64,000 bases of DNA from Rhodospirillaceae bacterium (lineage in GTDB: Bacteria; Pseudomonadota; Alphaproteobacteria; MPNO01; UBA2964): assembly GCA_002720855.1 (NCBI GenBank), contig PBIN01000014.1:777619-841618 (forward strand), read 5' to 3'. The position numbers were made by a program, and so were the translations under genes. Below, piece by piece: positions 6,495 through 55,056 of the stretch (the first letter of the stretch is position 1; the number at the start of each line of letters is the position of its first letter). The notes under the pieces are model-generated. The model was not told the origin of the DNA. It was given only the letters and a program-made list of their open reading frames with translations, and made no database searches.

Positions 6495-7553
6495 CTATTT
6501 CTTGGATTTTTTCTTCTTCTTTTTGTTATAGCCGAGAACTGTCGCCGTACGTTTTAGAATATCTTTCGGCGTCTTCATCAGTTCTGCAATATTGGCTTCA
6601 ACTTGCTCGCCCGTAAGTACTGAAAGATCCATTTTTCGCTTCTTGGCATCGGCCAGGAACTTCGGATCCTTCATTGTAGCAAGAAATGCTTTACGCAATG
6701 CTTTTAGACGGTCCTCCGGGATACCAGGTGGAGAACCGACAATCCGCGCCATGGCAACTGGAGCGGACAATAGTTTCGCAATTGGTTTGTAACTTGCCGG
6801 GACCACATCAACCAACATGGGGACCCCTTTAACGGCTGGATCGGGGTGCGGTGAGAGGCCTGCCTGAACGAGAGCATAAATCTTTCCAGTGCCAATCCAA
6901 TGCGGGCGAATTACGTTCCAGCTTTGCCAGGAACCACCACGTCCCTGAGCTTCACCGGCCTCCATGGCATTCGTCATCTTCGCCGTACCACGATATCCGG
7001 TAACGATTTTAAATTTTGTTCCGGCGGCAGCATTTAAGAACTGAGGGAATATGTAGGTTTCTGACCCTTTACCAGATGCCGCAAGGATGATTTCTTTTTT
7101 CTTCGCATCCTCAAGCGATTTCGCAACATCACCCATTGCGACAACCATACTGTTGAGGGCTGCCATGCTGCCAATCCAGCGCATCTTGCTCATATCAAAC
7201 TTGATGCCGCGCGGACGAATTAATTGGAAAAGCGGATGAGTCCAGAACGGTGTCATAACTGTCGTGCCATTTTTTGGAGCAACGTTATAAACATAGTTTG
7301 ATGCTTTAACGCCGCCTGATCCCGGCATATTGACAACAATGGCATTTGGTTTGCCGGGAAGGCGTGGACCCATATGCTGGACCAACGTCCGCATGTAGAG
7401 GTCATAACCACCACCAGGAGATGCGCCAATATAAAAGCGAACGGTTTTTCCGCTATAGAAATCAGATACGGCATCTGCTTGCGCAGCCGTTGTAACTCCC
7501 AAGCCAATGCTTGCGGCGATTAGTGCCGAGCTAAATCGAATGGTGTTTCTCAA
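6495..7553 (-). CDS. tctC: Tripartite tricarboxylate transporter substrate-binding protein (TctC/Bug family) with a poly-lysine C-terminus
   Basis: Signal peptide, then a Bug-family core (VRFYIGASPGGGYDLYMRTL...NMPGSGG). The C-terminus ends ...GYNKKKKKKSKK. Confidence 0.8.
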   Translation of the reverse strand: MRNTIRFSSALIAASIGLGVTTAAQADAVSDFYSGKTVRFYIGASPGGGYDLYMRTLVQHMGPRLPGKPNAIVVNMPGSGGVKASNYVYNVAPKNGTTVMTPFWTHPLFQLIRPRGIKFDMSKMRWIGSMAALNSMVVAMGDVAKSLEDAKKKEIILAASGKGSETYIFPQFLNAAAGTKFKIVTGYRGTAKMTNAMEAGEAQGRGGSWQSWNVIRPHWIGTGKIYALVQAGLSPHPDPAVKGVPMLVDVVPASYKPIAKLLSAPVAMARIVGSPPGIPEDRLKALRKAFLATMKDPKFLADAKKRKMDLSVLTGEQVEANIAELMKTPKDILKRTATVLGYNKKKKKKSKK

Positions 7554-9270: not shown

Positions 9271-11226
9271 CTATGCTGTTCTCCACGCATTGCCAAAATC
9301 TTCGGACAAAGCGGATATTGCGTCATCCCAGGACCGATCTGAGGACTGTCGGTAAACAGGTGTGTCGGGGAACCATGGAGAAAATTCCCCGCGATTCATC
9401 CATCGATATTCAGCAGGAAATGGCACAAGAACGCGGCATAATTTACCCAATCCAGCGCGGAGGTGTACGTTCGTATTGCTTACACAAACATACTCATTCA
9501 AGAGCTGTAACACGGCGAGCATCCCTTCGAGGTCGTCATTCAACGTTGTTAAATCATGGACGGGGTGTCCCAATACCGTTGAGAATTCATCAATTTCTCC
9601 CGGGGCGGGCGTTCTCTGAAGAGAGATAAAAGTGCCCTCAATACCGCTGAGTGCCCCGGCCAGTGCATTTTGCGGTACATCTTTAAAAAGAAAATTGCGG
9701 GTTTTGTTTCCAGCCCTCCAGGTAATGCCGACATATGGTGGTGGGCCAAACGATTTTAGTATTTCTGTGAATTTTGCCACAACATTAGGCCGAGCGGATA
9801 ACGAAATCGACGCTGGTATATCATCCTCTGTCACCATATTCGACAAATGCGGTAAATCGCCGATCGAAACGACATGGTCGAAATCACCGACTTCTATCGG
9901 TTGATCGTCTGTGATTACCCGGATGTCTGAAATATTTCGCTGAATGATTGAGGCGATTTTTGTTTGTGATTGATAGGTGATTTCTGGATTTCGGACTTTG
10001 AGGTTCTGTATAAAACGGAGAAAGAAAATTTCGTCACCTAAACCCTGATCAAATTTTAAAAAAACTTTTTTCCCAGTGAGGTCGTCAGGCAGACTTTCCT
10101 GCTCGAAGGGTAATTGAGATGCCCGAATTGAACCGCGGTGGCGATTGTCACGCCAACCTTCCGCGAATTGTCCGTTTGCCAAAAACAATAAAGCCCTATT
10201 GGCACGGGCTTCTTCCACGGCTAGGCCTTTCTCATCGGATTGGGACCATTGGTCGATTGCTTTGTTCCAAAAATATTCAGCCCGGCAGAAATCGCCGCGT
10301 GTTTGACAAATTCCCGCGAGATTTGAGGCGGCGTCTGAAAGCGTCGGGTCAATTTTATACGCGTTTTGAAATGCCTCCTCGGCTGCGTCGTCTTTTCGTT
10401 GAACTCTTAATGCCAACCCCAAAATGTTCCATCCGCGGGCTTCGTTTTTATCGAGCGCAAGACCGGCCCGTGCTGCTTGTTCTGCTGCAACGCCTTCCTC
10501 CATGGCTTGGAGAACTGTCGCTAATCCGAACTGTGCCGTCGCGTAACTGGCATCGATTGCGATTGCATTTTCGAAACTCTTCTTGGCAGCTATCAAATCG
10601 TTTTCCTCAAACAATAGATATCCAAGATTGACTTGAAAGACCGGTGATTGCGGCTCCAGTTCTGCTGCCATTCGGTGATGTTTGGCGGCTTCGTCATGGG
10701 CATTCGAGTCACTCAAGGCAAGAGCGAGACCGGAATGAGCGTCTGCACAATTAGGATCCTGATTTAGAGTTTCGCGATAGCACGCGATGGCTTTATTTTC
10801 CTGGCCGCAAGCACGTAAAGCATTTCCCAAATTGACGCGCGCATCGATATAGCCTGGCTGAATAGCGATTGCTTTTTGATAATATTTGATCGCTTCAGCA
10901 TCCCGTCCGACCGATCTCAGAGCTGCTCCCAAATTGTTATATACCAATTCAGTTTCAAGCCCGTTTGCGATGGCACGGGAAATCAGATCAATTGCCTCAT
11001 TCCCGCGGCCCACCTGATGGTGGATCACACCGAATAAATGGAGGGCATCCGGGTTTTCAGAATCCAGCTTGAGAATTTCTTCATATCCCGCCGCAGCGGC
11101 CTCCAGACGGCCTTGCTGGTGGGCTGCAACGGCCTCTTGGAGAAGGGGTCCAATGCGCTGCTGACTTTCGCTCGAATTGACGGCCTGCCCTTGCTTTTTT
11201 GCGGCGCGGCGTTCCTTGCGGTTCAA
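9271..11226 (-). CDS. TPR-repeat protein with a C-terminal GT-B/GT9-like glycosyltransferase domain (FlmG-like architecture)
   Basis: The N-terminal roughly 330 aa are multiple 34-residue TPR units (AIKYYQKAIAIQPGYIDARVNLGNAL...). The C-terminal roughly 300 aa (FLKFDQGLGDEIFFLRFIQNLKVRNPEITY...LVPFPAEYRWM) resemble heptosyltransferase-like GT-B domains. Confidence 0.5.
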   Translation of the reverse strand: MNRKERRAAKKQGQAVNSSESQQRIGPLLQEAVAAHQQGRLEAAAAGYEEILKLDSENPDALHLFGVIHHQVGRGNEAIDLISRAIANGLETELVYNNLGAALRSVGRDAEAIKYYQKAIAIQPGYIDARVNLGNALRACGQENKAIACYRETLNQDPNCADAHSGLALALSDSNAHDEAAKHHRMAAELEPQSPVFQVNLGYLLFEENDLIAAKKSFENAIAIDASYATAQFGLATVLQAMEEGVAAEQAARAGLALDKNEARGWNILGLALRVQRKDDAAEEAFQNAYKIDPTLSDAASNLAGICQTRGDFCRAEYFWNKAIDQWSQSDEKGLAVEEARANRALLFLANGQFAEGWRDNRHRGSIRASQLPFEQESLPDDLTGKKVFLKFDQGLGDEIFFLRFIQNLKVRNPEITYQSQTKIASIIQRNISDIRVITDDQPIEVGDFDHVVSIGDLPHLSNMVTEDDIPASISLSARPNVVAKFTEILKSFGPPPYVGITWRAGNKTRNFLFKDVPQNALAGALSGIEGTFISLQRTPAPGEIDEFSTVLGHPVHDLTTLNDDLEGMLAVLQLLNEYVCVSNTNVHLRAGLGKLCRVLVPFPAEYRWMNRGEFSPWFPDTPVYRQSSDRSWDDAISALSEDFGNAWRTA

Positions 11227-11850: not shown

Positions 11851-13755
11851 ATGGCAGAAACCTCTATTGAAGCGATCCCAAAGCAGAAGTCCACACAACT
11901 GGTGCCTACCCAGCTTGTTCGTATAGTTTTTATTGCATGTTTTATTGCCATTAGCGCTGTCGTCTTGTGGCAGACATATTACTGGTCGCAAAAGATTGGA
12001 CTTGAAGAAATTCGTGAGCGTAACGATCACACACTCAATCTAATCGTAACCAATCTTCAGGGGGAACTCTCCCAATTCCAGTATCAACCCGCATTGCTGG
12101 CAAACAGTAAATTATTTCAGTCAGTTCTCCTGGATCCCGCCTCTGGTCCTACTCTTAACGGACTGAATCGTGAGTTGGAACGTGTCAATTTTTTGTCGGG
12201 CGCACTCGAAACATTTCTCGTAAACAAGGCGGGAATAGTTGTTGCCTCCAGCAACTGGGCTGCAGATCGTTCTCTGGTTGGAACGTTCGTTGGAGCAAAA
12301 CCATATTTCCAGACCGCAATGCACGGGGGATTGGGCCGATATCACGCGATATCAGGACCGCCCGACGCAGGGGAAATGAGCTATTTCTTTGCGCATCCCA
12401 TCAGGTCCTCAAACCGTCAAATAGGTGTTGTTGTTATCAGACTGCGATTGGGAAGCCTTGAAGAAAGATGGCTTGCGCCCGACCACGAAACCCTCGTTCT
12501 TGATGAAGCTGGCATAGTTTTTATGAGTACGCGATCTGACTGGCGGTTTAGATCGACAGCGTCCCTGAACGACGAAATTTTGTCAGGTCTGAAGAGATTG
12601 CACCAATATGGTGACCAAACATTTCCACCGCTCAATATTTCGCAATCGGTAGGTGGTAACATTATTGAGATAACCCAAAGCCAACCCCCGAACAGTCAGA
12701 ATTCTTCGTCAGAAAGAACCACCCGGTATCTTCTTCAACAAAAGAAAATGACGACGGCGGGGTGGCGAGTTCTGATTTTAGCAAAGTTGGACAGCGCCAC
12801 CCTTCAAACTAATATTTCTCTGATTGTTGTTAGTTTTATGCTGGTCAGCGCCCTGTTACTTTTTGCTGTGCTCTATCAAAGGCGATTGCGCCTGCAGGAA
12901 CGTATATCGCTTCAGGAGGCCGCGCAGGCGAACCTTGAGCATCAGGTTGAACAACGGACAGAGGCCCTGACCGATGCGAACCTGCAGCTGCGAAACGAAA
13001 TATTTGAACGACACCGTGCCGAGGCGGAACTTCATAAAACGCAAGCCGAGTTGGTTCAATCCGCGAAACTGGCCGCGCTTGGCTAAATGTCCGTTGGTCT
13101 GAGTCACGAGTAAAACCAGCCGCTTGCGGCGATACGGTCTTACTCCGATAACGCGAGAACATTTTTGGATCGCAAACAGCCAGAGTCGGTAAATTCGAAT
13201 CTCGAGGGCATCTCCGAGTTAACAGAACGGATGGCGCACATCATTCGCAACCTACGGACATACGCGCGGGGTGAGCCGGTAGAAGCGCGGCCAACATCGC
13301 TTCGTGTGGCTATTGAAGAAGCCCTAAATTTGCTGGAAGTTCGATTTAGGGAAGAGGCGGTTGAGCTTGATGCAAAATTGCCGGACAAGAGCATCGAAGT
13401 AGTTGGCGGAACCGTTCGATTGCAACAGGTTTTTGTAAATCTGATTTCCAACGGCATTGACGCGATGCAGGGTTGCACACAACGGCAATTGAGTATCTCA
13501 GTAGACGACAGTGAAGATAAGGTATTCGTAAAAATTTCCGATACAGGGCCGGGCATCAATGAGGAGGATCGGGCCAATATATTCGATCCATTTTTTTCGA
13601 CAAAAAAAGTGGGCGAGGGAACCGGTCTGGGATTGTCAATTTCTTACGGTATTATCAATCAGTTCGGCGGCCAGATAGAGACCCACAATAAGGAAGCCGG
13701 CGGTGCAGTATTCACCGTCACGCTTCAGCGGGCGGGGAAAAAGAAAGCAAATTGA
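11851..13755 (+). pseudogene. dctB: DctB-type C4-dicarboxylate sensor histidine kinase, interrupted by two in-frame TAA codons (13084-13086 and 13111-13113) within the H-box
   Basis: One frame carries a periplasmic double-Cache sensor, a TM segment, a coiled coil and HisKA, then an intact HATPase_c (N, G1, G2 boxes). The H-box reads [35 protein letters not shown], against the canonical LAALGQMSAG(L/I)SHELNQPLAAI. Confidence 0.8.
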
Positions 13756-15125: not shown

Positions 15126-15722
15126 TCAGCTCAATACGTGCGGTATCAGCGTCGGGCCGTCATTGAGTCTTACGTCACCCGTTTCCAGGTCGTAGGTTCG
15201 TTGTTTAAAGGTACCGGCTTTTTGAGCACGAACGATGAATGCCATACTGTTTTCCGGTCCGCCATGTTCCTGATGGATAGCGCCCGGCGGGACCGCATCT
15301 ACGTCACCAGGTCCGATATCATGACAGCTGACTTGCTCTATCTGGGCAGGTCCTTCGTTACGAGGGGCATCATCAGTTCTTTTATATCTGTACATGGTCT
15401 CGTGACCCTCGATGAGCCCATAAAGCGTCCAAACATCGCCATGGTCGTGAACGCTGGTAACCGACTTCGCTTTGCGAACAGTTGCATTAAAGACAAATCC
15501 GTAATCTGGATCCTCGTAAAACAGCAGGTTCTTTACCTTTGGCGCGCCTTCCACAGTTAGCGGCCAGGTTTTGGAGCTTTCGATCAATTGTGGATCGGCC
15601 AGAAGCGGACCCATAGTAACCCGGATTTCCGCCCACAACTTGTCTGCTTCCAGATTTTGCGCGTATAGCGCCCTGATTCTATCGACAAATTTACGCGCGG
15701 CGGGAAGCGGTGGTTTTTCCAT
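15126..15722 (-). CDS. Cupin-fold protein, cysteine dioxygenase type I-like (thiol dioxygenase family)
   Basis: SVHDHGDVWTLYGLIEGHE resembles the CDO metal-binding H-x-H cupin motif 1. 198 aa. Confidence 0.45.
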   Translation of the reverse strand: MEKPPLPAARKFVDRIRALYAQNLEADKLWAEIRVTMGPLLADPQLIESSKTWPLTVEGAPKVKNLLFYEDPDYGFVFNATVRKAKSVTSVHDHGDVWTLYGLIEGHETMYRYKRTDDAPRNEGPAQIEQVSCHDIGPGDVDAVPPGAIHQEHGGPENSMAFIVRAQKAGTFKQRTYDLETGDVRLNDGPTLIPHVLS

Positions 15723-23549: not shown

Positions 23550-25100
23550 TCATACTGATTTAAGGGGTGGCCCCCACTTGTCCATTCCAAGTTGCGCCCA
23601 TCGATTTCGAATTCCCTCCGCATCTTCTTTTTCCGGGTGAATGGTAGGTGGATATCTCCGCCCCTGAGAATCGGGTTCGTAGTCGAGGTTGATCGTGCAG
23701 TCATATAATACCCGGTGCCACTTTCCGGTACCAAACAAATGAACGTTTGAATCCCGTGCTCTGACACTTGGGTCCAAACCAGCGCCCCAATTTTCAGGAT
23801 AAACAACCAAATCGCCTTCGCCAGCGTTGAAACGCCACGCCAAAGCCCAGTCAATTGCATCGTAATCATGCACATCAATATCAGCATCAACTACCGTAAC
23901 GTGCTTGTACCGAACGTGGGATGCCGAATTGCCCCACAGAGCAAGAGCGACCTGCTTGGCTTGACCGCGATAAGTCTGATTGATCGAAACCACCGTGTTT
24001 ACACATGCCTGGATTGGCATACCAAACACGTCAACGATTCCAGGAACGCCAGCAGATTCAAGCGCATTCCAGGCAGTGGCCGATCGTTGAATCGAGCTCA
24101 TAATCGGATTCTCGCCGTAACTTCCCGGTATTGCACCCTCGACGCAACCGCGCAGGATCGGTTTTTCCCGATGCGTAATACAGGTGATCTGGGCGACATG
24201 TTTGGGTGACCTGTCAGGTGCGTAATACCCCGTGAACTCTGCGTAGGGGCCTTCTACTTCGAATGTAGAGGGATCAGTTGAAATCCATCCTTCGATAACC
24301 ATCTCGGCATTAGCCGGAACCTGGAGCGGCACAGTCTCACAATCAACAAGATCAACCGGTTTCCCACGAATTGAACCCATAATGTCATACTCAGAGACAG
24401 CTCGTGGGATCGGCGCGCCACCGGTAAAGCCCATCGATGGTTCCCATCCGATCACGAAAGCGACCGGCATCTTGTCGCCGCGTTCCATATGTTTGGCGTA
24501 ATGTGTTCCCCAGCCTTGGGCACGCCACAAAAGAACACCGATGCGATCCTTATCGAGTACCATGCCACGATATATGCCGATATTGTGTACGTCGGTGTCC
24601 GGATCTTTGGTCACACAACCCGCATAGGTCAGGATATAGCGTCCGCCGTCACCGCGATTCCATTTGGGGACGGGGAATTTTAACAGATCGATATCGTCGC
24701 CCTTCAAAATGTGTTCTTTGACAGCACCTGTTTTGACCGTATTTGGCGTCACCTGATTGTTGAATATCGTTCGGCACACCTGGACAAGGTCGCGTACCGG
24801 TGTATCGCGCGGCATTCCAAACATCATGGCGAGCCGTGAATAGCTGCCTTGGCCGCCCGTGAATACCTGCGAGGAAACGGCATCCGAGCTGTTATAATCT
24901 TTGATATTATTAAACAGGAAAGCAGGGCCGTGGCCGGTTCCCTGACCCATCCGAATTATGTTGCCGAGTTCGACGTCCCAATCCACTTCGGCATCAATTT
25001 CCGCAAGTTCACCCTCTTTGCGCAGGGCGTCTAACCACCCGCGTAAATCGCCAAACGCGACAGGATTGCGCTCTACGCTGGATTCCGCTGGGTCAGTCAT
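23550..25100 (-). CDS. UbiD-family (prFMN-dependent) decarboxylase paralog 2
   Basis: 516 aa, collinear with paralog 1 and with UbiD. The N-terminus LRGWLDALRKEGEL resembles the UbiD N-terminus. Confidence 0.8.
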   Translation of the reverse strand: MTDPAESSVERNPVAFGDLRGWLDALRKEGELAEIDAEVDWDVELGNIIRMGQGTGHGPAFLFNNIKDYNSSDAVSSQVFTGGQGSYSRLAMMFGMPRDTPVRDLVQVCRTIFNNQVTPNTVKTGAVKEHILKGDDIDLLKFPVPKWNRGDGGRYILTYAGCVTKDPDTDVHNIGIYRGMVLDKDRIGVLLWRAQGWGTHYAKHMERGDKMPVAFVIGWEPSMGFTGGAPIPRAVSEYDIMGSIRGKPVDLVDCETVPLQVPANAEMVIEGWISTDPSTFEVEGPYAEFTGYYAPDRSPKHVAQITCITHREKPILRGCVEGAIPGSYGENPIMSSIQRSATAWNALESAGVPGIVDVFGMPIQACVNTVVSINQTYRGQAKQVALALWGNSASHVRYKHVTVVDADIDVHDYDAIDWALAWRFNAGEGDLVVYPENWGAGLDPSVRARDSNVHLFGTGKWHRVLYDCTINLDYEPDSQGRRYPPTIHPEKEDAEGIRNRWAQLGMDKWGPPLKSV

Positions 25101-38079: not shown

Positions 38080-39364
38080 CTTGCGTCGCCGTCTGCGGGG
38101 TAAGGCTGGCTAAAAACGGGGCGAGTTCTCTCATCACGTGATCAAGAATGTCGCTTTTTGACTTTGCAATTGTCGAGGCAGCACTAATTTGTGCTGCACG
38201 ACGTTCTTTATCGGCAAGAAGGCCGCCGACTGCATCCGCAAGTTCTATTTCGTTTGTAATGCTAATCGAGCCACCGACATCGGCGATTTCGATAGTTATC
38301 TCCGTGAAGTTAGTCGTTGAGGGTCCGTGTATGATTGCGCATTCGAGCTTCGCTGCTTCCAAAATATTTTGCCCGCCATGTGGAACCAAAGTCCCGCCAA
38401 TGAAGGCGATCGGCGCAAGACGATAAAACAGTCCGAGCTCACCGACGGTATCTGCGACATAAATCTCTGATTCTGAGGTGATGGTCTGAACCTCACTTCT
38501 TTGCGCGACCGAAAGCCCGCGCATTGCCAATGTGCTTGCAATCTCCGCACCTCGAGCAGGGTGCCTAGGAATAATAATCGTCAAAATATCAGGGTAGTTT
38601 TGAGCGACTGCGGCATGGACGTCCGCCACCTTAATTTCTTCGCCCTCATGAGTACTCGCCGCGACCCAAATTGGTCGCGCACCAATTTCATTCCATAAAC
38701 TGGATAGCGCAGCGTCATCGACTGGCAGCGGGTCCGCAGCATATTTGATATTGCCAGGGATACGGATTTGCTCTGCACCCAAGATTCGGAGTTTTTCCGC
38801 ATCCTGTTCACTTTGGGCAAGGCACAGTGAAAAACAGTGAAGTAATCGGGAAATTGTCCGTGGCAAGCGTTTCCATCCGCGGAAAGAAGAGGGAGAAACC
38901 CGGGCATTGACCAATATTAACGGAATGTTGCGCGCTTTTATCGCTGTCAAAAGGTTTGGCCAGAATTCTGATTCAATCCAAAGCACGAGATTTGGTTTCC
39001 AGTGATCAAGAAATTTCTGGATCCAAACAGGCTGATCGATGGGGATGAATTGATGAATGACCGGTTTGGGCAAACGATCTGCCATGATCTTTGCCGACGT
39101 CACCGTGCCTGTGGTTACCAGGATTGATAGCGCTGGATAATCTTCCTTCAATCGATTCACAAGAGACAGGATCGATATTGATTCACCGACACTCGCGGCA
39201 TGAAACCAGACAACCGATCCGGAGGGGCGTTGTTCGCTTGGTTGACCGAACCTTTCGTTGATACGCGCAGAGTCCTCTTTCCCTCGCAATCGACGACGGT
39301 CAATAAAGCCTCTCAAAATTGGTGCGGCAGCATAGGAAAGCCCGCGATATGCAGACAAAATCAT
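38066..39364 (-). CDS. waaA: 3-deoxy-D-manno-octulosonic acid (Kdo) transferase
   Basis: VWFHAASVGE and the KdtA N-terminal domain. 432 aa. Confidence 0.85.
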   Translation of the reverse strand: MILSAYRGLSYAAAPILRGFIDRRRLRGKEDSARINERFGQPSEQRPSGSVVWFHAASVGESISILSLVNRLKEDYPALSILVTTGTVTSAKIMADRLPKPVIHQFIPIDQPVWIQKFLDHWKPNLVLWIESEFWPNLLTAIKARNIPLILVNARVSPSSFRGWKRLPRTISRLLHCFSLCLAQSEQDAEKLRILGAEQIRIPGNIKYAADPLPVDDAALSSLWNEIGARPIWVAASTHEGEEIKVADVHAAVAQNYPDILTIIIPRHPARGAEIASTLAMRGLSVAQRSEVQTITSESEIYVADTVGELGLFYRLAPIAFIGGTLVPHGGQNILEAAKLECAIIHGPSTTNFTEITIEIADVGGSISITNEIELADAVGGLLADKERRAAQISAASTIAKSKSDILDHVMRELAPFLASLTPQTATQDARA

Positions 39365-40068
39365 GAAATTGTCTCCGCGATCGGCTCAATCTTGGGCAAT
39401 CCCAATTCAGTATCGATTTGGCGGGTAATTTCGTTCAATTGATCTTCCAGGGCTACGGTGATGCGAATGATCTCCTTGTCGTCAGCGTCGTCAGCGATAT
39501 CGATTGGTTTACCCCATTTCATAATGCCGCGGCAAAAGGGCAGCGGTACAAGAAAGCGATCCCAGCTCGAGAAAATTTTACATGGACGCGCCGTGTAGCT
39601 GAGCGGAAATATTGGCACCCCGGCATGACGCGCAGCAAACACCACGCCTTGCGCGGCCTTCATTCGGGGTCCGCGGGGGCCATCGGGTGTTACCCCCACG
39701 CATTCACCCTTTTTCAATGATCTCAAAATTGATCGGACCGCACCCACTCCACCTCGGGATGACGAGCCGCCGATGGAATCGAATCCCAAAATTCCAATCG
39801 TTCGCGCGATCAATTCGCCATCGGGATGATGAGAAATCACCATTTTGAATGTTTGCGGGTATGGCCAGGCAAGCGACATCATTAGCAACCGACCATGCCA
39901 AAACGCGACCAGGAACGGCTTTCCGCTGTCCAAATAGGATTGGGGAATTTCTGTGCCGTCAATGCGCCACCGACCAGTTATTTTAACGAAACGAATATAG
40001 TTGGCCGCGACCCAGCACGCGATAGCCCGTGGACCAGGTCGCCGCATCATATTCTTGAATAATGCCAT
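39361..40068 (-). CDS. DUF374-domain protein (lysophospholipid acyltransferase-like), conserved partner of waaA
   Basis: 235 aa. Position between msbA and waaA and the motif pattern (FWHGR...VTPDGPRGP) match the DUF374 family. Confidence 0.6.
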   Translation of the reverse strand: MALFKNMMRRPGPRAIACWVAANYIRFVKITGRWRIDGTEIPQSYLDSGKPFLVAFWHGRLLMMSLAWPYPQTFKMVISHHPDGELIARTIGILGFDSIGGSSSRGGVGAVRSILRSLKKGECVGVTPDGPRGPRMKAAQGVVFAARHAGVPIFPLSYTARPCKIFSSWDRFLVPLPFCRGIMKWGKPIDIADDADDKEIIRITVALEDQLNEITRQIDTELGLPKIEPIAETIS

Positions 40069-40071
40069 CTC

Positions 40072-41886
40072 TCAGGCTGTAGCCTCTGCCGGAACAGCCT
40101 CATCAGCTTGCTCGGCGAATTGTACCGCGTATAGACGTGCATAGGCGCCGCCTTTGGCGAGAAGTTCGGCGTGTGTACCCTGTTCAATTATCTTGCCGCC
40201 ATCCATGACATAAATTTCGTCAGCAGCCATTACGGTCGAAAGTCGATGGGCGATAACGAGAGTAGTACGCCCCCTTGTTAGAGTTTCCAGCGCAGATTGG
40301 ACTTGACGCTCGGTTTCGGTGTCTAAAGCGGAAGTGGCCTCATCGAGAAGCAAAACCGGTGCGTCTTTGAGCATTGCGCGCGCTATGGCTATTCGCTGGC
40401 GCTGTCCACCGGATAGTTTCATGCCGCGTCCACCAACATGCGTTTCGTAACCCGACGCAAGATTCTCGATAAAATCATGTGCCTCCGCAGATTGCGCAGC
40501 GGCTATAATTTCATCGTCCGTCGCGTCGGGTTTTCCGTATGCGATATTGCCCCGTACAGAATCATCGAAAAGAGTGATGTCCTGGGAAACCAAAGCAATA
40601 TTGGCCCGGAGCGAAGCAATCGAAGCGTCGCGCAGGTCAATCCCATCAAGGAGAATTTGCCCTTCTGCGCAATCGTAAAATCGTGGAATCAAATTAAGGA
40701 CGGTTGATTTCCCTGCGCCGGATGGGCCGACCAGAGCAATCGTGCTGCCCGCTGAAATTTCCAGATTAATTCCCGAGAGCGCGGGGCGGTTCTCCTCATA
40801 GCCAAAATTGACATTTTTGAATTCCAAATTGCCTTTGACCCTATCGAGTATTTCGGCTTCGGGCTTGTCCTTAATTGTCGGGTCAAGATCGACCAATGCA
40901 AAAATTCGGTTGGCTGCGGCAAGCCCCTCCTGAAGATTGGCATTGAGGTTGGCAAGATTTTTCATCGCAGGGTAGGCCATCAAGAGTGCAGAAATAAAAG
41001 AGGCGAATGTGCCTGGTGTGGTCGCTCCCTGAATGACCTGACTGCCGCCATAAAAAATGATCACAGCGATGGCAACTCCACCGAGCGATTCCATAATTGG
41101 ATGCGTTGCCGAGCGAACGCGTGCCGCCCTTTGGACAAGTTGAAAAATCGCTTCAATAATATTTTCTGCGCGGTCAATTTCGTATTTTTCCATGCCGTAG
41201 GCGCGGACATGCCGGGCTCCGCGAAAAGTTTCGTCCAGCACAGTTGTGAGTTCACCCATTTGAACCTGGGTATTGTCGGATACTCTGCGCATCCGTTGGC
41301 CGATACGGACGATGGGATAGACGGCAGTGGGAAAGATAACAAAGGCGATCAAAGCCAGAGCCCAATCGTGATAGAAGAGTAGCCCTATGAGGAAAACCAG
41401 AGTGAGCGTGTCTTTGGCGATCCCTACGAGGACGTTTGAAACAGCCGCCCGCAACATGTTGGCGTCATTGTTAAAACGCGAAATTAACTTGCCGGTCGAG
41501 GTCTTCTGAAAATAGGCGATGTCGGCCAACATGAGATGCGAAAACATGCCAAGCTGGATTGTCGAGACAATTCGTTGTCCGACGTGACTCATCAGGACTG
41601 ATTGACCATAGGTCGCGATGCCTTTGATCACCGCGATCACTAGAATTGCTATTGGGATCAGCACCAGCATGCGTTCGTCTTTTAAGATAAAAACATCGTC
41701 GAAGACGGGTTTCATTAAATAGGCATTGGCTGCAGTCGTGGCTGCAACGACGGCCATACACAGAACCGCGAAGATCAACCGGCCCCGATGGGGGCGCACG
41801 TATGCGCGCACAAGCCGGGCGACTAATGCCTGGGTGGATACTTGGTTTAGCGGCACTACCGCGGTCTGAGTGTCAGGACTGTTCAT
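40072..41886 (-). CDS. msbA: ABC transporter ATP-binding/permease, lipid A flippase MsbA-like
   Basis: Six TM helices, then an NBD with Walker A GPSGAGKST, the signature LSGGQRQR and Walker B LLLDEATSALD. Confidence 0.85.
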   Translation of the reverse strand: MNSPDTQTAVVPLNQVSTQALVARLVRAYVRPHRGRLIFAVLCMAVVAATTAANAYLMKPVFDDVFILKDERMLVLIPIAILVIAVIKGIATYGQSVLMSHVGQRIVSTIQLGMFSHLMLADIAYFQKTSTGKLISRFNNDANMLRAAVSNVLVGIAKDTLTLVFLIGLLFYHDWALALIAFVIFPTAVYPIVRIGQRMRRVSDNTQVQMGELTTVLDETFRGARHVRAYGMEKYEIDRAENIIEAIFQLVQRAARVRSATHPIMESLGGVAIAVIIFYGGSQVIQGATTPGTFASFISALLMAYPAMKNLANLNANLQEGLAAANRIFALVDLDPTIKDKPEAEILDRVKGNLEFKNVNFGYEENRPALSGINLEISAGSTIALVGPSGAGKSTVLNLIPRFYDCAEGQILLDGIDLRDASIASLRANIALVSQDITLFDDSVRGNIAYGKPDATDDEIIAAAQSAEAHDFIENLASGYETHVGGRGMKLSGGQRQRIAIARAMLKDAPVLLLDEATSALDTETERQVQSALETLTRGRTTLVIAHRLSTVMAADEIYVMDGGKIIEQGTHAELLAKGGAYARLYAVQFAEQADEAVPAEATA

Positions 41887-41979: not shown

Positions 41980-43323
41980 TCAAAGGCCTGCAACCGTCAT
42001 GCCGTCGATTCTTACAGTTGGCGCATCCGTGCCATACCTGAACTCCAGATCATTTGCCGGAACCAGATTTGCAAACATGTCCGTCAGGTTCCCCGCGATC
42101 GTCATTTCACTGACAGGATAAGTGATTTCACCATTCTCAATCCAATACCCGCTAGCTCCCCGGCTATAGTCACCGGTGACACCATTTACACCCATACCGA
42201 TAAGCTCATTCACGAGAAAACCTTCCTTCACGTCTGCAATCAATTCGCTGACAGATAGTTCGCCAGCTTCCAAATAAACGTTGGTTGCTGAGGGACTTGG
42301 AGGTCCGCCGGTACCCCGCGAAGCGTTGCCTGTCGTCGACAGTTCGAGTTGACGTGCGGAGGCGAGGTCGAGAAGCCAGGTGGTCAGTTTACCGTTCTCA
42401 ATGATCGCTTTTGGGGTTGTGGCAATTCCCTCGCCATCAAATGGTTTGGAGTTTAAACCGCGTTTTCGGTGAGGGTCGTCATGGATGGTGATGTTTTCAG
42501 CAAATATTTGTTCGCCCATCCTATCCTTAAGAAACGATGTGCCGCGCGCGATTCCCGCACCGTTAATGGCGCCTGTCAGGTGACGCAACAGACTGGACGA
42601 TGCGCGCCAGTCGTAAATGACTGGAACCAGTGCCGTCTTTTTCTTTTGCGGATTGAGACGGGCAACCGCCCGTTCGCCGGCAATACGGCCGACATCGGCA
42701 GGTTTTGCCAAGTCTTCGGCATAAACGGCGGTTGCAAAATCGTAATCACGTTCCATCGCCGTACCTTCACCGGCGAGGACAGATACAGAGAAGCTATGGC
42801 TGGTGACTGCGTAGTTTTGGCTAAAGCCATTGGTGGCAGCCAAAGCGATCCGCGCTTTACTATATCCTGCTTCTGCTCCTTCCGAATTGGTGACACCCGC
42901 TACAGCTCGTGCCGCATCTTCGGCTTCGTTTGCTATTTCAATGAGCGCGTTTGTATCGGGTTCAAAAGGGTCGAAACTATCCATTTCTGCAATGGTTGCT
43001 GCAATTTGGGCTGGGTCAGCGATACCGCACCAGGGGTCCTCCGGTGCAACCTTGGCCATCGCTACGGCACGTTCCGCCATCTCGTGGAGGGCGTCGTCAG
43101 AGTGATCTGTAGAGGAGACAATCGCTTGCTTTTTGCCAATAAAAACCCGAAGACCTATATCGGCAGATTCAGATCGCTCCAGTTTTTCCGCTTGCCCCAG
43201 CCGTTGGGCAATCTCGATTGAGGTCGCATCAAACACGAGAGCATCCGCACTATCCGCGCCTTCTTTTTTGGTGATTTCCAAAAGCCTCGCCAGGAGATCA
43301 AGCTGGTCCACCGGTTCCGTCAT
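41980..43323 (-). CDS. pmbA: Metalloprotease PmbA/TldE
   Basis: 447 aa, PmbA/TldD superfamily. A second TldD-type gene lies at 58854..60287. Confidence 0.8.
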
Positions 43324-44816
43324 TTTTTTTCCTTTTTCCAGATCGGTTCGCCTGAACCGGGCAAGCCATATGTCTGCCAGTCACGGGTCACCCGTTCAAC
43401 GATATCATCACTCATACGAATTTTGCGCCCCCATTCCCTGTTGGTCTCAGGCGGAATCTTTTCAGTCGCGTCGATGCCGACTTTTGATCCGAGCCCGGTT
43501 TCAGGCGATGCAAAGTCCAAATAGTCAATCGGCGAATTTTCTACAAAGGTACAATCTCTTGACGGATCAACATTTGTCGAAATGGCCCAAATCACGTCCT
43601 GCCAATTCCGCGCATCGATATCGTCATCTACGACAATAACAAATTTTGTATACATGAATTGGCGCAAATAGGACCAGACAGCCATCATGATGCGTTTCGC
43701 ATGTCCCGGATATGCTTTGCGAATTGACACCACAGCAACGCGATATGAACAGGCTTCGGGGGGGAGCCAAAAATCAACGATTTCGGGGAACTGCTGCGTT
43801 AGAAGGGGAACAAAAACATCATTTAGGGCTTCGCCAAGAACCGATGGTTCATCGGGTGGGCGACCGGTAAATGTCGAGACATAGATGGGATCTTTACGCA
43901 TGGTAATTGCACTAACCGTAAAGACCGGAAATTTCTCCACTGCGTTGTAATAACCGGTGTGATCGCCATAGGGACCTTCTGGCGCGTAATCTGTTCGCGA
44001 CACATGTCCCTCGAGGACAATCTCCGCATTGGCGGGTACCTGCAATGGAACTGTCTTGCAATCAACAAGCTCGACCTTTTTATCGCGTAATAATCCAGCA
44101 AATTGGTACTCAGAAACAGCTTCGGGGACCGGCGCTACTGCTGCAATCATGGTTGCGGGGTCTGCGCCAATAACGGCGGCGGCCGGAATAGCATCGCCGG
44201 TCGCTGCCGCATGGGCTTCAGCGCCGCCCCGATGGTCAAGCCAGCGCATAATTGTTGTGTTTTTTCCAGTGACCTGCATCCGGTAAATGCCGAGATTAAT
44301 GCCTGATGGTCCGTCGGTTACCACCAGAGGCCAGGTTATGAGAGGCGCAGGTTCGTTGGGCCAACAGCTTTGCACAGGCAATATGGACAAATCGACATCG
44401 TCTTTTTCAAGAACGATTTCTTGACATGCAGCTTTGGAAACCGTTTTCGGTTTCATCGCAAAGACAGATTTGACCAGCGGAAGCATTTGAAGGGCTTCCC
44501 GCCAGCCGCCAGGTGGTTCGGGTTGTCGCAAAAATGCCAGCTGTTCGCCAAATTTGCGGAGTTCCTCGGGTTCACGATCCATGCCTTTAGCGACTCGTTC
44601 GACGGTACCAAACAGATTGACCAGGACAGGAATATCGCTTTGCGAACCGTCGTCCTTCACCGGGTTCTCGAACAATACGGCAGGACCTCCTTCCGCAAGG
44701 AGTCGTGTTTGAATTTCAGTCATTTCGAGAACAGTCGATACCGGTTTAGCGACCCGGCTTAGCTGACCGTCGCTTTCAAGTTGATCTAAATAGTCACGCA
44801 GGCTGACAAAGGCCAT
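43320..44816 (-). CDS. ubiD: 4-hydroxy-3-polyprenylbenzoate decarboxylase (canonical UbiD)
   Basis: 499 aa from [14 protein letters not shown]. This UbiD-type N-terminus is distinct from the two paralogs at 21913..25100. The gene is co-directional with pmbA. Confidence 0.8.
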
Positions 44817-44944
44817 GGTATCTATGCTCGCAAAACTCGGAAAATCCCGGGCGGCCACTGTTTAGCACGTTGTTGGGGGGGAAGGGCAAATCCATTGATA
44901 ACGTAAGTCTACAATTTGATTCGCGGAAAAAGCTGTCGTAGAGC

Positions 44945-45679
44945 TTGCAGGTCTATTTGGAGGGACTTTTGTTAAACCCGGTAGCGCACGCTAAAGCCTA
45001 TCCTTTCCCAGCGCCGAACCACTCATATATGTTTGAGGCTGGCGGCTGGCAGTCGATCAACGATGACACATTTGAAGTTGCTGGACGAACCCCGGTTCTC
45101 GCCGCTGGGTCTAATCAATCCCCCGAACAACTTGCCCGGAAATATGCTGAATTTCCCCATATTGGTCCGATTCCGGTTATTCGAGGAACTCTCTCAGGTT
45201 TTGACGTCGTCTATGCCGCTCATCTCGCGGGATATGGTTCAATACCAGCGACATTTCAAAATTCACCTGGGACTATCGTCAACGTGTTTGTGGCGTGGTT
45301 TACGGACCCGCAACTAGAACAAATGCATGCGACGGAGCGCAACTACAGTTTCGACCGTCTAAATGATTTCTGGCTTGAAACTGATTATGGGCCAACGCCC
45401 AATGAGGTGTTTGCCTATACCGCGAAAGTGGGTTGTTACAATCACAACGGTAACTGCCTGAGCTTGGCGGAAATTCCCGCGAGAAATCGAAAGTTCTCGT
45501 CGGCGACGCAAGAGGAAGTGCAGGAACATCTTCGTGACCGGCTGTCGGCTGCAACGGAACTCGATCAATTTATTTCCGAGCATATTGAGGATGAAATCAT
45601 CCGTGTCGGGAGAGTTGCTGCAATGAAGGACGATGCAATCGAGATCGGTTATCCTCGAGAAACATTGATTTCACTTTAG
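44945..45679 (+). CDS. Gamma-glutamylcyclotransferase-like (AIG2/GGCT fold) protein
   Basis: VLAAGSNQSPEQLARKY resembles the GGCT YGSNL...L motif, with a downstream acidic LEQMHATE. Confidence 0.35.
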   Translation: MQVYLEGLLLNPVAHAKAYPFPAPNHSYMFEAGGWQSINDDTFEVAGRTPVLAAGSNQSPEQLARKYAEFPHIGPIPVIRGTLSGFDVVYAAHLAGYGSIPATFQNSPGTIVNVFVAWFTDPQLEQMHATERNYSFDRLNDFWLETDYGPTPNEVFAYTAKVGCYNHNGNCLSLAEIPARNRKFSSATQEEVQEHLRDRLSAATELDQFISEHIEDEIIRVGRVAAMKDDAIEIGYPRETLISL

Positions 45680-47851: not shown

Positions 47852-47977
47852 TCCTTAGTGTGTCGCAGTCTATTTAGCACAAAATTCCAAGACTGTGCCT
47901 ACGCGGACTTGGTACCCGTCCATTGACATTGGCCAAAGGGTTGTTTGTCATCACAATAGGCAAAGAGGAGAGACGCG

Positions 47978-49081
47978 ATGACAACTGTATCATATGATGA
48001 TGCGCCGGTGCCGATCCGGCAGGATTTGCTCGACGCTCACCAACGCGCCTGGCAGCGGATTGCCGAACCCGGCACATGGCTCGATGGGAGTACGAGAACT
48101 GCAATTGCCCATGAGGTGCGTAACGCCCGGCAATGCAAGTTTTGTGCAGAGCGAAAACAAGCATTAATGCCTTATAGTCTTGAAGGGGCCCATCAGACGG
48201 TCACGGGCCTTTCGGAGGCTCAGGTGGAACTCATCCATCGACTGGCAACGGACTCGGCGCGCCTTAAACGTAGCTGGTGCCGTAATCTAATTGATAATGG
48301 ATTATCTGAAGAGGAATATGTCGAAACAGTGGGGGTTGCCTGTACGACAATTTCTCTAGACACATTCGCCCACGCGCTTGGTATTCAATTGCGTGAAATT
48401 CCCGCTGCCCAGGAAGGCAATCCGTCGCGAATTCGGCCCGAAGAAGCACGACAGGGCGACCCTTGGGTGCCATGGATTGCGCCTGAAGATGCAAGTGAAG
48501 CTGACAGGGACACATTTGGACCGGGAATTTCGAACATACGGAGAGCTCTAAGTCTGGTGCCTGATGACGCTCGGGGGTTTTTTGATCTCGTTGGAAATCA
48601 GTATCTCGATGCCGAGCAAATGAAAGATTTTGTGACGCAATTCCGCGCAATAACGCGTGCCCAAATCGAACTTATAGCCGGACGAATATCAGCCATAAAT
48701 CAGTGTGCCTATTGAACCACCAGCCATACGGCACTGCTCCGTGCGAGCGGCGAACACACTGGTGAAGAGGTCGATTTGAGCAGCGTAATGGGGACAGCGG
48801 AAGGCGATGGCGGTATTCCAAACGGTGCGATGTTGGTTAGTTTTGCGGAAGCTATCGTAGGAGACGATACCTCAAGGTTGAATGCAGCGCGCGACGAGGT
48901 GAGGCAAGTTCTGGGCGAGGATGGTCTGGTCGATTGCTGCGGTATTGCAGCAACATTTAATGCCATCGATCGTGTTGCAGATTCAATTGGTATTCCGATC
49001 GATGAAATACGTCTGGAGCCGACAGCCGAGTTCAGACGGGAACTTGGGATTGATGAATTTCCGTCACGGCTTGAAAGTTAG
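47978..49081 (+). CDS. AhpD-like / carboxymuconolactone-decarboxylase-family peroxidase-related protein, predicted selenoprotein (in-frame UGA at 48713-48715)
   Basis: The track ORFs 47978..48715 and 48776..49081 share a frame. The whole interval 47978..49081 is open except for one TGA. The TGA falls at ...AGRISAINQCAY-[TGA]-TTSHTALLRAS..., the position of the second Cys in the family motif S-x-x-N-x-C-x-Y-C-x-x-x-H. Confidence 0.7.
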
Positions 49082-50028
49082 AAATACGAGATTATTTGGT
49101 CGGCGACGATACCGCTGAGAAAAAGCCAGGAGAAAAGTCGGTTGGATTTGAATTTGGCGAGACAATCTTTGGGGTTGTTGATGTCAACATCCCAGACCTG
49201 CCAAACCAGCTGAAAGGCTCCCAGTCCTAACCCAACATAAAATGGCCATCCAAATTCGGCGGTTTTTCCCGCGAAGGCAAAGAATACAGCAGCCATAAGA
49301 TAAAACGCATAAAGCCATGGTTTGCTGCCAAGACCTAAACGCCGCGCCGTGGACTTTACTCCGGCCTTGGGGTCATCCTGCCGGTCCTGATGGGCGTAAA
49401 TAGTGTCATAGCCTAATGTCCAAAAGATACCGCCGAGATACAGCAGTATGGCTGGCAGGGATATGTCTTCCCGCACTGCAGCCCAGCCAAGCAACGCCCC
49501 CCAGTTAAAGGCGAGACCAAGAAAAAATTGAGGCCAGAACGTTACGCGTTTCATCAACGGGTACGTGAAAACCAGGACCAACGAAGCAGCGCCTACCGCA
49601 ATGGCATAGTTTTTGAGCGTTAGGAGGATGAGAAAGCCGATGATCAAGAGCGCGATTAGGAAACCGGACGCTTCCTTGATGGTGACCTGACCGCTGGGCA
49701 AAGGGCGGTTCTTGGTTCTGGCCACCTGGGCATCAAAATCTCGATCGACGATATCGTTATACGTACAACCGGCACCGCGCATGACCAATGCACCAATTCC
49801 GAACGCAGCGAACAGGTATAGTATTTCTGCGGTTGCTTCGGCTGAAGGCCATGCCATGGCAATTGACCACCAGCATGGAAAGAGTAGCAGCCATGTCCCA
49901 ATGGGGCGGTCAAACCTGGCAAGCCGGATATACGGATGCCACGAAACGGGCATATAGCGTTCAACCCAGCCATTGACCGGAATGTCGCTTGCGCTGTCGT
50001 CAGTTTTATTTCGGGCTTGCTCTGACAT
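49078..50028 (-). CDS. ubiA: 4-hydroxybenzoate polyprenyltransferase
   Basis: UbiA prenyltransferase family with a polytopic Asp-rich region (ARFDRPIGTWLL...NDIVDRDFD). Confidence 0.85.
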   Translation of the reverse strand: MSEQARNKTDDSASDIPVNGWVERYMPVSWHPYIRLARFDRPIGTWLLLFPCWWSIAMAWPSAEATAEILYLFAAFGIGALVMRGAGCTYNDIVDRDFDAQVARTKNRPLPSGQVTIKEASGFLIALLIIGFLILLTLKNYAIAVGAASLVLVFTYPLMKRVTFWPQFFLGLAFNWGALLGWAAVREDISLPAILLYLGGIFWTLGYDTIYAHQDRQDDPKAGVKSTARRLGLGSKPWLYAFYLMAAVFFAFAGKTAEFGWPFYVGLGLGAFQLVWQVWDVDINNPKDCLAKFKSNRLFSWLFLSGIVADQIISYF

Positions 50029-53265: not shown

Positions 53266-55056
53266 GTGTCGGACGGTCGATATATCGGATACCAGGTTGT
53301 CCAAGATTCTGTCCTCTTAAAGGTGAGACCGAGCTATGACCCCACTGCAGAGATCGCATGGATAGTAAGGCCGGTAACACGGAAAATTGGCCCGCAGACC
53401 TATAATGGTATCGGCTGGCGGCTGCGCATTACCGGACTGGATGAAGCGGCTTGGGTAACACTTGGTGAAAATGGCAAAGCTGCCACAGGCGATTGGTACG
53501 TTCAGCAGAGCTGGGGCAAGTTTATCGAGCACCAGCTGGGATTTGATGACCGCAGACTGCTGGAAGAAGGTTGGCACGGCGCCCATCATCAGCCGTTTAC
53601 TTATTTCGGCGGCAGTAAGGGGTCAGTAGTCAGCTATTTCGCAAAACCCGTCGCCGCGCGGTTGGCGGTCGAAGCAAGAGGGCCAAATCTTCCCCACCTT
53701 TGGCATATTCCTCTCGGAAAAGGCAGCATTCGATCCACGCCCGAAAAATTATGGCTTGCAAACAAGCGGCCGCTCAAAACCAAATGGAAAGCTCTTGATG
53801 AATGGGTGTATGCCTATGATAGCGTGGCCGGGGGCTACCGCCGCTTACTTGGCCTGCAGGAGACCCAGCCTAAGCCCACCCTGTGGTGGCAGCATCCGAG
53901 CGAGGATTACTATCTCCAATTCCAAAGTCAGGGCGTTACCAAAGACGAAAATCTGTGGACCAAGAGATTTGCTGATACAGTTCTTCGAGACGCCGTGTCG
54001 ATGGGATTTGGGGTGGTTTATCTGGAGGGATTGTGGGAAACGGACGGGCAATACCCTGAAAGCCGTTATCTCCATAACAGCCAGAGCTTCGGATCCATCG
54101 ATGCCCCTTGGCGACTTCGTATAAGCCGTGCTGTTGGCGGAAATAAGGGGCTCGCCGACCTGGTTAAACGCGCGCACAAATCGAACGTAAAAATCTTGTT
54201 GTGGTCAACGCCGGGACATCTTTCTAATTCTTCGCCGTTGCTCATTGAAAATCCTGATTGGATTCGCTGGAAGTATGAAGGCGTTCCTGAAACAGCGGGA
54301 TACGGAGACGTTACCGGTGTGGATTTGCGGAGTGGCTATTTAGACTATGCGATCAGTCAATATCGAAAAATTCGCAAATCGACGAAGTTTGACGGTATGT
54401 GGATCGACTCGTTTCTGACATTTGGTATTTTGCCCAATGGACGGGAGAAGCAATACGCTCCGCAACTGGATCGTAAGTTGTTTCTCCAGCGGCAACTCCA
54501 GAAGATGGGGGCGGGAGAGCTTCATATTGAAGGGGCCGGACCCTTCGGAATTTCGACCGGCGGGTATGGCTACGAAGGCTATGTATTGGGCAACGCGTTG
54601 GATAAAGCGGTGGCCCGCAGAAAGTTTCAACATATTCGCGGGCGAGAGTATGGGCTCTATCGCTATATTGCCGACACCATTGTTGAACCAAACAGTTATT
54701 TTCGCGCTTTGGCTTCCAAAGGAGCAATCGGCGTTTTTAAACTTTCACTCCTGAAGAGGCTTAGTAAGCAAGGGCTCGCTTTAATTGCTCGCAGTAACAG
54801 CATCTACAGAGAGGTGCTGCCTGAACTCCAGATTAGGGAACTCATGGGGAAAGGTGAGGAATGGTTCGGAGTTTCTTGGTCAAACCGGCAAAACAAAAAT
54901 AAAATTATCTTTGCCTTCAAACGCTTTCAGGTCGAAACGGGAGCGGCAATTGTCGAAAATCTTATGAATGGCGACGTAAAGGTGGTCAAGAAAGGTTTCA
55001 TAACCTTACCGAAGACAATATTTCGAATTCGATACGATTTGGAAAACGCGCAATAG
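53266..55056 (+). CDS. Uncharacterised TIM-barrel glycoside-hydrolase-like protein (body of a probably secreted protein)
   Basis: 596-aa ORF with GVVYLEGLWETDG, NVKILLWSTPGHL and DGMWIDSF segments that look like GH-type beta/alpha-barrel strands. The track start (GTG at 53266) is arbitrary. The frame is open back to 53056, and with TGA readthrough back to 52888. Confidence 0.5.
   Translation: MSDGRYIGYQVVQDSVLLKVRPSYDPTAEIAWIVRPVTRKIGPQTYNGIGWRLRITGLDEAAWVTLGENGKAATGDWYVQQSWGKFIEHQLGFDDRRLLEEGWHGAHHQPFTYFGGSKGSVVSYFAKPVAARLAVEARGPNLPHLWHIPLGKGSIRSTPEKLWLANKRPLKTKWKALDEWVYAYDSVAGGYRRLLGLQETQPKPTLWWQHPSEDYYLQFQSQGVTKDENLWTKRFADTVLRDAVSMGFGVVYLEGLWETDGQYPESRYLHNSQSFGSIDAPWRLRISRAVGGNKGLADLVKRAHKSNVKILLWSTPGHLSNSSPLLIENPDWIRWKYEGVPETAGYGDVTGVDLRSGYLDYAISQYRKIRKSTKFDGMWIDSFLTFGILPNGREKQYAPQLDRKLFLQRQLQKMGAGELHIEGAGPFGISTGGYGYEGYVLGNALDKAVARRKFQHIRGREYGLYRYIADTIVEPNSYFRALASKGAIGVFKLSLLKRLSKQGLALIARSNSIYREVLPELQIRELMGKGEEWFGVSWSNRQNKNKIIFAFKRFQVETGAAIVENLMNGDVKVVKKGFITLPKTIFRIRYDLENAQ

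Follow-up and report, generated by a model that had tools for sequence, protein, structure and literature searches.

Introduction

A 2005 Sargasso Sea study described 'hypothetical protein 1' from four sequences with a conserved CXXU motif and a predicted selenocysteine insertion sequence (SECIS) (PMC1088965), and a 2026 review equates the NF041238 family with this CxxU selenoprotein, while listing AhpD-related and AhpD-like selenoproteins as separate entries (PMC13188914). Of the marine selenoprotein families, those of AhpD-like CxxU proteins belong to the most abundant (PMC2398784). Here, we analyzed a 64,000-nucleotide stretch of DNA that derives from a marine (Tara Oceans) metagenome and is assigned to a Rhodospirillaceae bacterium (contig PBIN01000014.1; hereafter the window, meaning the whole stretch), in which a coding region at positions 47978..49081 of the forward strand is interrupted at codon 246 by an in-frame TGA. 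We conclude that this locus is very probably a single gene whose product, an AhpD-fold selenoprotein of 367 residues and two domains, belongs to the NF041238 family. The gene is thereby a member of a catalogued marine bacterial selenoprotein family, and both the family and its selenocysteine (Sec) codon were already known.

With the NF041238 'AhpD-related' proteins, or 'hypothetical protein 1', the window gene shares the C-x-Y-U-T motif, a single Sec, a SECIS right after the UGA, and a marine alphaproteobacterial origin. Its motif is CAYUT instead of CFYUT, a variant common to many members, and otherwise nothing substantive differs. The 'AhpD-like protein' family (TIGR01926/COG2128, 'AhpD-like 1' of the Global Ocean Sampling (GOS) survey) has the AhpD/CMD fold, the CxxU motif and the abundance in marine metagenomes in common with the window gene; its members are single domains of ~180 aa, whereas the window protein, at 367 aa, adds a predicted N-terminal AhpD-fold domain that carries its own CxxC. 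Judged by sequence, the window gene is a relative of that family rather than a member in the strict sense. Mycobacterium tuberculosis AhpD (1gu9/1knc) and the AhpD-core proteins 3c1l, 6k40 and 2prr differ in having Cys, not Sec, and one domain; the M. tuberculosis enzyme acts with AhpC and lipoamide, whereas no such partner gene is linked to the window gene.

Reading frame and family assignment

Two open reading frames (ORFs), 47978..48715 and 48776..49081, lie in the same frame, with the TGA at 48713-48715 as the lone interruption, and the 60 nt separating them are open in that frame. The original prediction, made from the sequence letters alone, had read this arrangement as a CxxU selenoprotein gene in which the TGA takes the position of the second Cys of the AhpD/CMD motif. 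The arrangement is as it had described, and Cys does align at this position in full-length homologs. The complete frame runs from an ATG, which stands 7 nt 3' of a Shine-Dalgarno-like GAGGAG (47965..47970, forward strand, read directly from the sequence), to a TAG at 49079-49081, and comprises 367 sense codons including the putative Sec-UGA. Around the TGA the product reads ...RISAINQCAY-[UGA]-TTSHTALLRASGEH..., and it continues for 121 codons up to the TAG. Codon 246 (48713..48715) falls within an active-site motif, C243-A-Y245-U246-T-T-S-H250 (48704..48727), which corresponds to the AhpD-type C-x-x-C/U-x-x-x-H helix-turn-helix and is kept in the 80 related loci analyzed below. A further CxxC, C53-K-F-C56 (48134..48145), lies in the N-terminal half, and both of its Cys residues are invariant across the family; all of these features are on the forward strand.

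Frames that stay open on either side of a TGA arise readily by chance: with thresholds of 60/40 codons, the window has 46 of them across its six frames. The argument made here accordingly relies on homology and comparative data rather than on ORF length. None of the other read-through candidates in the window was credible, as these were shadow frames or adjacent genes sharing a frame. One such pair lies at 39361-41886 on the reverse strand, where msbA (604 aa) is followed in frame by a DUF374 gene (235 aa), with only the msbA stop, the TGA at 40072-40074, and one further codon in between. The arrangement mimics a read-through candidate, but msbA matches its model through to the last position (572 of 572), which identifies the pair as two ordinary genes.

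The read-through product, searched as a 367-aa query with Sec written as Cys, matched NF041238 (AhpD_rel_CFYUT) with 478.4 bits (cutoff 175, E = 1.5e-143) over residues 13-362, equivalent to model positions 1-356 of 357, and the C-x-Y-U/C-T motif of this family is present as C243-A-Y-U246-T. Pfam CMD (PF02627) spans the TGA as well (residues 224-270), with 38.3 bits for the read-through form versus 21.3 for the 245-aa form, such that the gathering cutoff of 23 is passed solely by the former. Residues ~214-343 align with the AhpD-core 'peroxidase-related' PDB entries 3c1l, 6k40 and 2prr, in which the second Cys of the CxxC receives the UGA (e.g. SSINHCYYCLTAHGAAVR), the active-site motif lining up with the CxxC..H of 3c1l and 6k40; the match to M. 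tuberculosis AhpD itself was marginal (E = 0.39). These alignments bear out the proposal that the frame beyond the TGA continues as an AhpD-type protein. The family label 'AhpD-like' needed revision: the AhpD/CMD fold stood, while TIGR01926 (peroxid_rel), which the C-terminal domain recognisably resembles (E = 2e-11), returned 43.8 bits, under its curated cutoff of 81.8, and NF041238 is the matching family instead.

Conservation of the UGA and selection on the downstream frame

A scan of one genome per species identified 351 genomes with a relative, and 80 loci were kept, all from Alphaproteobacteria metagenome-assembled genomes (MAGs) at 45-82% identity, with tblastn matches covering residues 1-367. 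Every one of these loci has TGA at the codon 246 site, followed by 114-140 open codons that start with the conserved TTSHxxLLRAS; homologs that terminate for good at this position, which the original prediction had named as a point to check, were therefore not found among them. When protein databases were searched with the full-length query, 119 of the 120 best homologs were 244-249 aa long and ended at the same codon, down to 53% identity, and all 119 homologs of the 3' part are fragments of 80-138 aa, mostly unnamed or called 'hypothetical protein'. After clustering at 50%, ~87 of the top 150 representatives were Sec-type truncations, and Cys occupied the UGA site in 22/22 motif-matched full-length representatives (31-44% identity). 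The family thus holds both Sec-type truncations and full-length Cys forms, which explains the '(seleno)protein' label.

We compared the window clade (loci L003-L007, fully syntenic with the window) codon by codon downstream of the TGA. Synonymous differences outnumbered non-synonymous ones (643 versus 311), and changes were concentrated at third codon positions (824 versus 210 and 138 at the other two), a pattern as found upstream of the TGA; the other two frames contain 3-13 stops. These results indicate that the frame downstream of the UGA is translated and under purifying selection.

Were the TGA an ordinary stop, the locus would encode two proteins, one of 245 aa and one of ~97-101 aa starting at 48776 or 48788. 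Gene callers split the locus in this way on all contigs, NCBI holds the adjacent hypothetical proteins GKS01_17240 and GKS01_17245 in a relative, and both a TTG and an ATG are available downstream of the TGA. The 60-nt gap, however, encodes TTSHxxLLRAS with its invariant catalytic His, in frame in 80/80 loci, and the CMD domain and NF041238 both cross the junction. In addition, the called 3' ORFs start variably (80-138 aa), continuous Cys forms exist, and a 245-aa product would be left without half of the active-site motif. We therefore regard two separate proteins as very unlikely, and a single read-through product as the preferred reading.

A second alternative is that of a pseudogene, or of a TGC or TGT misread as TGA in sequencing or assembly. 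The TGA is indeed one base away from either Cys codon, and one relative, P0010, reads TGT. However, the gene occurs with 100% identity, TGA included, in independent assemblies from different samples (L084, NCBI GCA_002306905.1; L086, a 770-kb ENA contig; 22 contigs carrying the exact 3' ORF were read), so the base-call error that the original prediction had asked to be checked finds no place here. The TGA is also present in 80/80 species-level genomes, and neither the purifying selection downstream of it nor the frozen hairpin codons described below would be expected to persist in a pseudogene. An error or a decayed gene is accordingly extremely unlikely.

P0010 (L083, 362-1516) is the only full-length close relative; it has TGT (Cys) at the site together with a perfect SECIS hairpin. 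The proteins nearest to it, at 79% identity, are Sec-type truncations without exception; P0010 therefore represents either a Sec-to-Cys conversion of recent origin, accompanied by relaxed constraint, or an assembly error. Its source is a single 5.5-kb Logan contig, and its conserved C-terminal motif is unusually divergent (GSSNAINRVVEATG versus the consensus ATFNAIDRVADSTG).

Two paralogs per genome were observed in several cases, some of them in tandem, and all copies share the TGA as well as the SECIS core. The paralogous UGAs lie at 10739 and 11851 in L039 and at 5213 and 6357 in L081, and further pairs within MAGs are L026/L027, L025/L054, L029/L077, L018/L047, L015/L048, L021/L080, L020/L035 and L024/L061. 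No relative was found in the viral contigs searched.

SECIS hairpin

RNA structure 3' of the UGA was analyzed in a gapless alignment of 81 distinct sequences (A2). RNAalifold returned a single 6-bp hairpin at alignment columns 31-36/42-47, which in the window is CUGCUC-CGUGC-GAGCGG (48734..48750, forward strand), with stem 48734-48739/48745-48750 and apical loop CGUGC at 48740-48744. Its core is near-invariant (UGCUCCGUGNGAGC) and paired in 99.4% of cells, and the core sequence is present once in the window. The closing pair is CG in 61 sequences, UG in 14, AU in 2 and GC in 2, and the next pair is UA in 46 and UG in 35.

Because the stem barely varies, covariation is limited, and RNA-level constraint was hence tested by codon entropy. 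Over 187 conserved degenerate columns of the gene the mean entropy was 1.31 bits, and it was zero in only four. These four codons are consecutive and overlap the hairpin: L254 CTC (82/82), R255 CGT (82/82), A256 GCG (67/67) and S257 AGC (78/78). The hairpin is under RNA-level selection.

The bacterial SECIS (bSECIS) model specifies a loop of 3-9 nt, a stem of 4-16 bp, G in the first two loop positions and a spacing of 16-37 nt, with a minimum free energy (MFE) of -7.5 kcal/mol or lower as the stability criterion (PMC13188914). The core hairpin has this geometry, with a 5-nt loop, a 6-bp stem and 24 nt from the UGA to the loop; G2 and U3 of the loop are invariant, so that the GU in the apical loop for which the original prediction had suggested looking is present there. 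The MFE was -6.8 kcal/mol for the bare 17-nt hairpin, -7.9 kcal/mol with 2-nt flanks, and -17.2 kcal/mol for a 55-nt two-stem fold.

In the two-stem fold, a possible lower stem (48718..48764, forward strand), in which 48718-48723 pairs with 48759-48764, encloses the core hairpin in the window clade. This lower stem is paired in 57% across the family, with some compensatory changes at 15:61 and 19:57, and the -17.2 kcal/mol fold has a z-score of only -1.1 to -1.5, which make it a weak candidate. Two other arrangements were rejected. An extension of the core stem to 8 bp leaves its two outer pairs unpaired in 35 and 56 of the 81 sequences. The hairpin that the original prediction had put forward as the SECIS core, GCAC/GTGC (48731-48734/48741-48744), exists in the window, shares positions with the core hairpin and is not conserved, being 70% paired with 0 compensatory changes, at or below shuffles, across the same 81 sequences. 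A SECIS hairpin after the UGA was thus correctly anticipated, with its core misplaced.

Sec machinery and the genetic code

In 11/80 loci (L034, L041, L044, L048, L050, L051, L052, L053, L054, L077 and L081), ARAGORN located a tRNA-Sec gene (anticodon TCA) at most 10 kb upstream of the family gene. All 11 also carry selB, and selA was detected in 6. The distance from the tRNA-Sec to the family gene is 52 nt in L041 (tRNA at 9854-9949) and ~125 nt in L044 (2313-2408). In L053 (5517-8988) the order is selA (Pfam SelA, 528 bits), selB, also confirmed by Pfam, selC, an enoyl-CoA hydratase gene and the family gene. In L048, the ~8 kb from selC to the family gene encode a hydrolase, a short-chain dehydrogenase, an amidase, a xanthine-dehydrogenase-family molybdoenzyme and an amidohydrolase.

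Within the window, TGA is a working stop codon. Five genes, xseA (model 1-388 of 389), msbA (572 of 572), pmbA (445 of 446), ubiD and coxB (201 of 202), end normally at TGA, and 57 long ORFs use 21 TAA, 20 TAG and 16 TGA. These results support local recoding of the UGA at codon 246, with no change of the genetic code, as had been proposed from the sequence.

The UGA might also be read through by means other than Sec insertion, either by near-cognate Trp or Cys suppression or because UGA is reassigned. The window is without sel genes and Sec insertion is inferred, which leaves some room for such a reading. Against it, xseA, msbA, pmbA, ubiD and coxB stop at TGA where their family models finish, which excludes reassignment; the site is that of a redox-active Cys in homologs; a SECIS-type hairpin with a conserved loop G-U lies at the canonical distance; and relatives adjoin selA-selB-selC. 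Non-Sec read-through is, in our estimate, very improbable, and Sec insertion remains the reading we adopt.

Several results weigh against this interpretation or limit it. Covariation within the hairpin is modest, with double changes at one pair only, in 4 sequences. The bare hairpin is just short of the -7.5 kcal/mol criterion unless flanks are counted, so the outcome depends on where the limits of the element are drawn. Rfam searches, at gathering and at permissive thresholds, gave no match in the window or around the UGA. The 64-kb window has no tRNA genes, no SelA or SelB by tblastn, and no SelD among suitably sized ORFs. Finally, clustering of the neighbouring genes at 81 loci revealed no family-wide AhpC-like or other redox partner gene, and the biochemical role is assigned by analogy.

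Domain architecture and proposed mechanism

The N-terminal domain (47978-48400, residues 1-140), which carries the invariant C53-x-x-C56, has no Pfam hit and no PDB sequence match. Structure models were confident for residues 1-210 (model 1) and ~280-340 (model 2), and the superposition of the two domains is provisional. In these predictions the N-terminal domain adopts an AhpD-like helical fold with confidence, and its best structural match is Sestrin-2. When the two halves were compared with hhalign, the N-terminal CxxC fell on the CxYU of the C-terminal half, and YVETVGVxCTTISxDTFA was paired with LVDxxGVAATFNAIDRVA (E = 1.3e-3, with a probability of only 18%), and MAFFT repeatedly placed C-terminal fragments on the N-terminal domain. 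These results suggest that a second AhpD fold, equipped with a separate CxxC, makes up the N-terminal half.

In Sestrin-2, two AhpD-like subdomains form a pseudo-symmetric pair, and the catalytic residues are Cys125, Tyr127 and His132 (PMC4674687). The C-x-Y-x-x-x-x-H spacing of these residues is that of C243, Y245 and H250 in the window protein, and the equivalents of the motif Cys, Tyr and His are catalytic in both AhpD and Sestrin-2. The human protein (PDB 5cuf) differs in keeping one catalytic Cys and no Sec, and it has no detectable sequence homology to the window protein, which likewise gave no hit to Pfam Sestrin/PA26.

From what is established for Sec incorporation in bacteria, translation would decode codon 246 (UGA) as Sec, with the mRNA hairpin 18 nt 3' of the UGA (48734-48750) recruiting SelB.GTP.Sec-tRNA(Sec) to the ribosome. 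Sec246 would then take the place of the second Cys in the AhpD-type C-x-x-C-x-x-x-H. By analogy with AhpD-type enzymes, we infer that the protein is an oxidoreductase built of two tandem AhpD folds, with Sec246 and Cys243 as its catalytic selenenylsulfide couple; the pair would cycle between the selenol/thiol and selenenylsulfide states, Tyr245 and His250 may serve as the proton relay, and the predicted activity is that of a peroxide or disulfide oxidoreductase.

We also consider, as a tentative and rather doubtful extension, that the family is a bacterial Sec-containing counterpart of the Sestrin architecture, in which C53/C56 might act as an internal resolving or relay centre for C243/U246, with no need of an AhpC-type partner. 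To our knowledge, a tandem architecture and such a relay have not been described for NF041238, which the literature consulted calls only 'AhpD-related, CxxU'.

Genomic neighbours and other genes in the window

The largest cluster among the neighbouring genes consisted of UbiD-like decarboxylases, found in 14/81 loci within 4 kb and in 19 within 10 kb. The UbiD-like hits come from unrelated clades (L015, L018, L021, L023, L025, L029, L040, L048, L049, L051, L054, L077 and L078). The window itself has UbiD-family genes at 43320-44858 and 23550-25100, both on the reverse strand, one of which adjoins ubiA, the gene at 49078-50028 that flanks the selenoprotein gene. This recurrence may be coincidental, given genomes with abundant aromatic catabolism, or it may mean that the CMD-fold protein and the decarboxylase are functionally linked.

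Four ORFs of the window had no NCBIfam match: 53266-55056 (596 aa) and 44945-45679 (244 aa) on the forward strand, and 6495-7553 (352 aa) and 15126-15722 (198 aa) on the reverse strand. The two forward ORFs also had no hit in the precomputed Pfam annotation, and L003-L007 carry a conserved, syntenic counterpart of the 244-aa ORF.

A DctB-like sensor histidine kinase gene (11851-13755, forward strand) contains two in-frame TAA codons (13084-13086 and 13111-13113), nine codons apart, inside the H-box, which reads ...LAALG*MSVGLSHE*NQPLAAI.... Kinase models match its C-terminal part through to their last positions, and this part stops at a TGA. At the two TAA sites, Gln (CAA) and Leu (TTA) would be expected from the motif. 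The gene is either a pseudogene with two nonsense mutations beside the phospho-accepting His, or something odder.

Significance

As a discovery the locus adds little, the family being represented in NF041238, the 2005 Sargasso Sea study and the 2026 review. Its main practical value lies in annotation, namely in joining entries that are now split into two 'hypothetical proteins'. Nearly every public copy among the top hits listed is divided into ~245 aa and ~100-120 aa, and the parts bear the names 'hypothetical protein' or 'alkylhydroperoxidase family enzyme', or no name at all; the exact copies on the contigs read, one in NCBI among them, are split into 245 aa and 97 aa. The strongly conserved SECIS core UGCUCCGUGNGAGC could serve to find such genes and to join them correctly. 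As long as these genes are split in databases, proteome and metabolic inference from MAGs misses the selenoenzyme and the selenium dependence that it implies.

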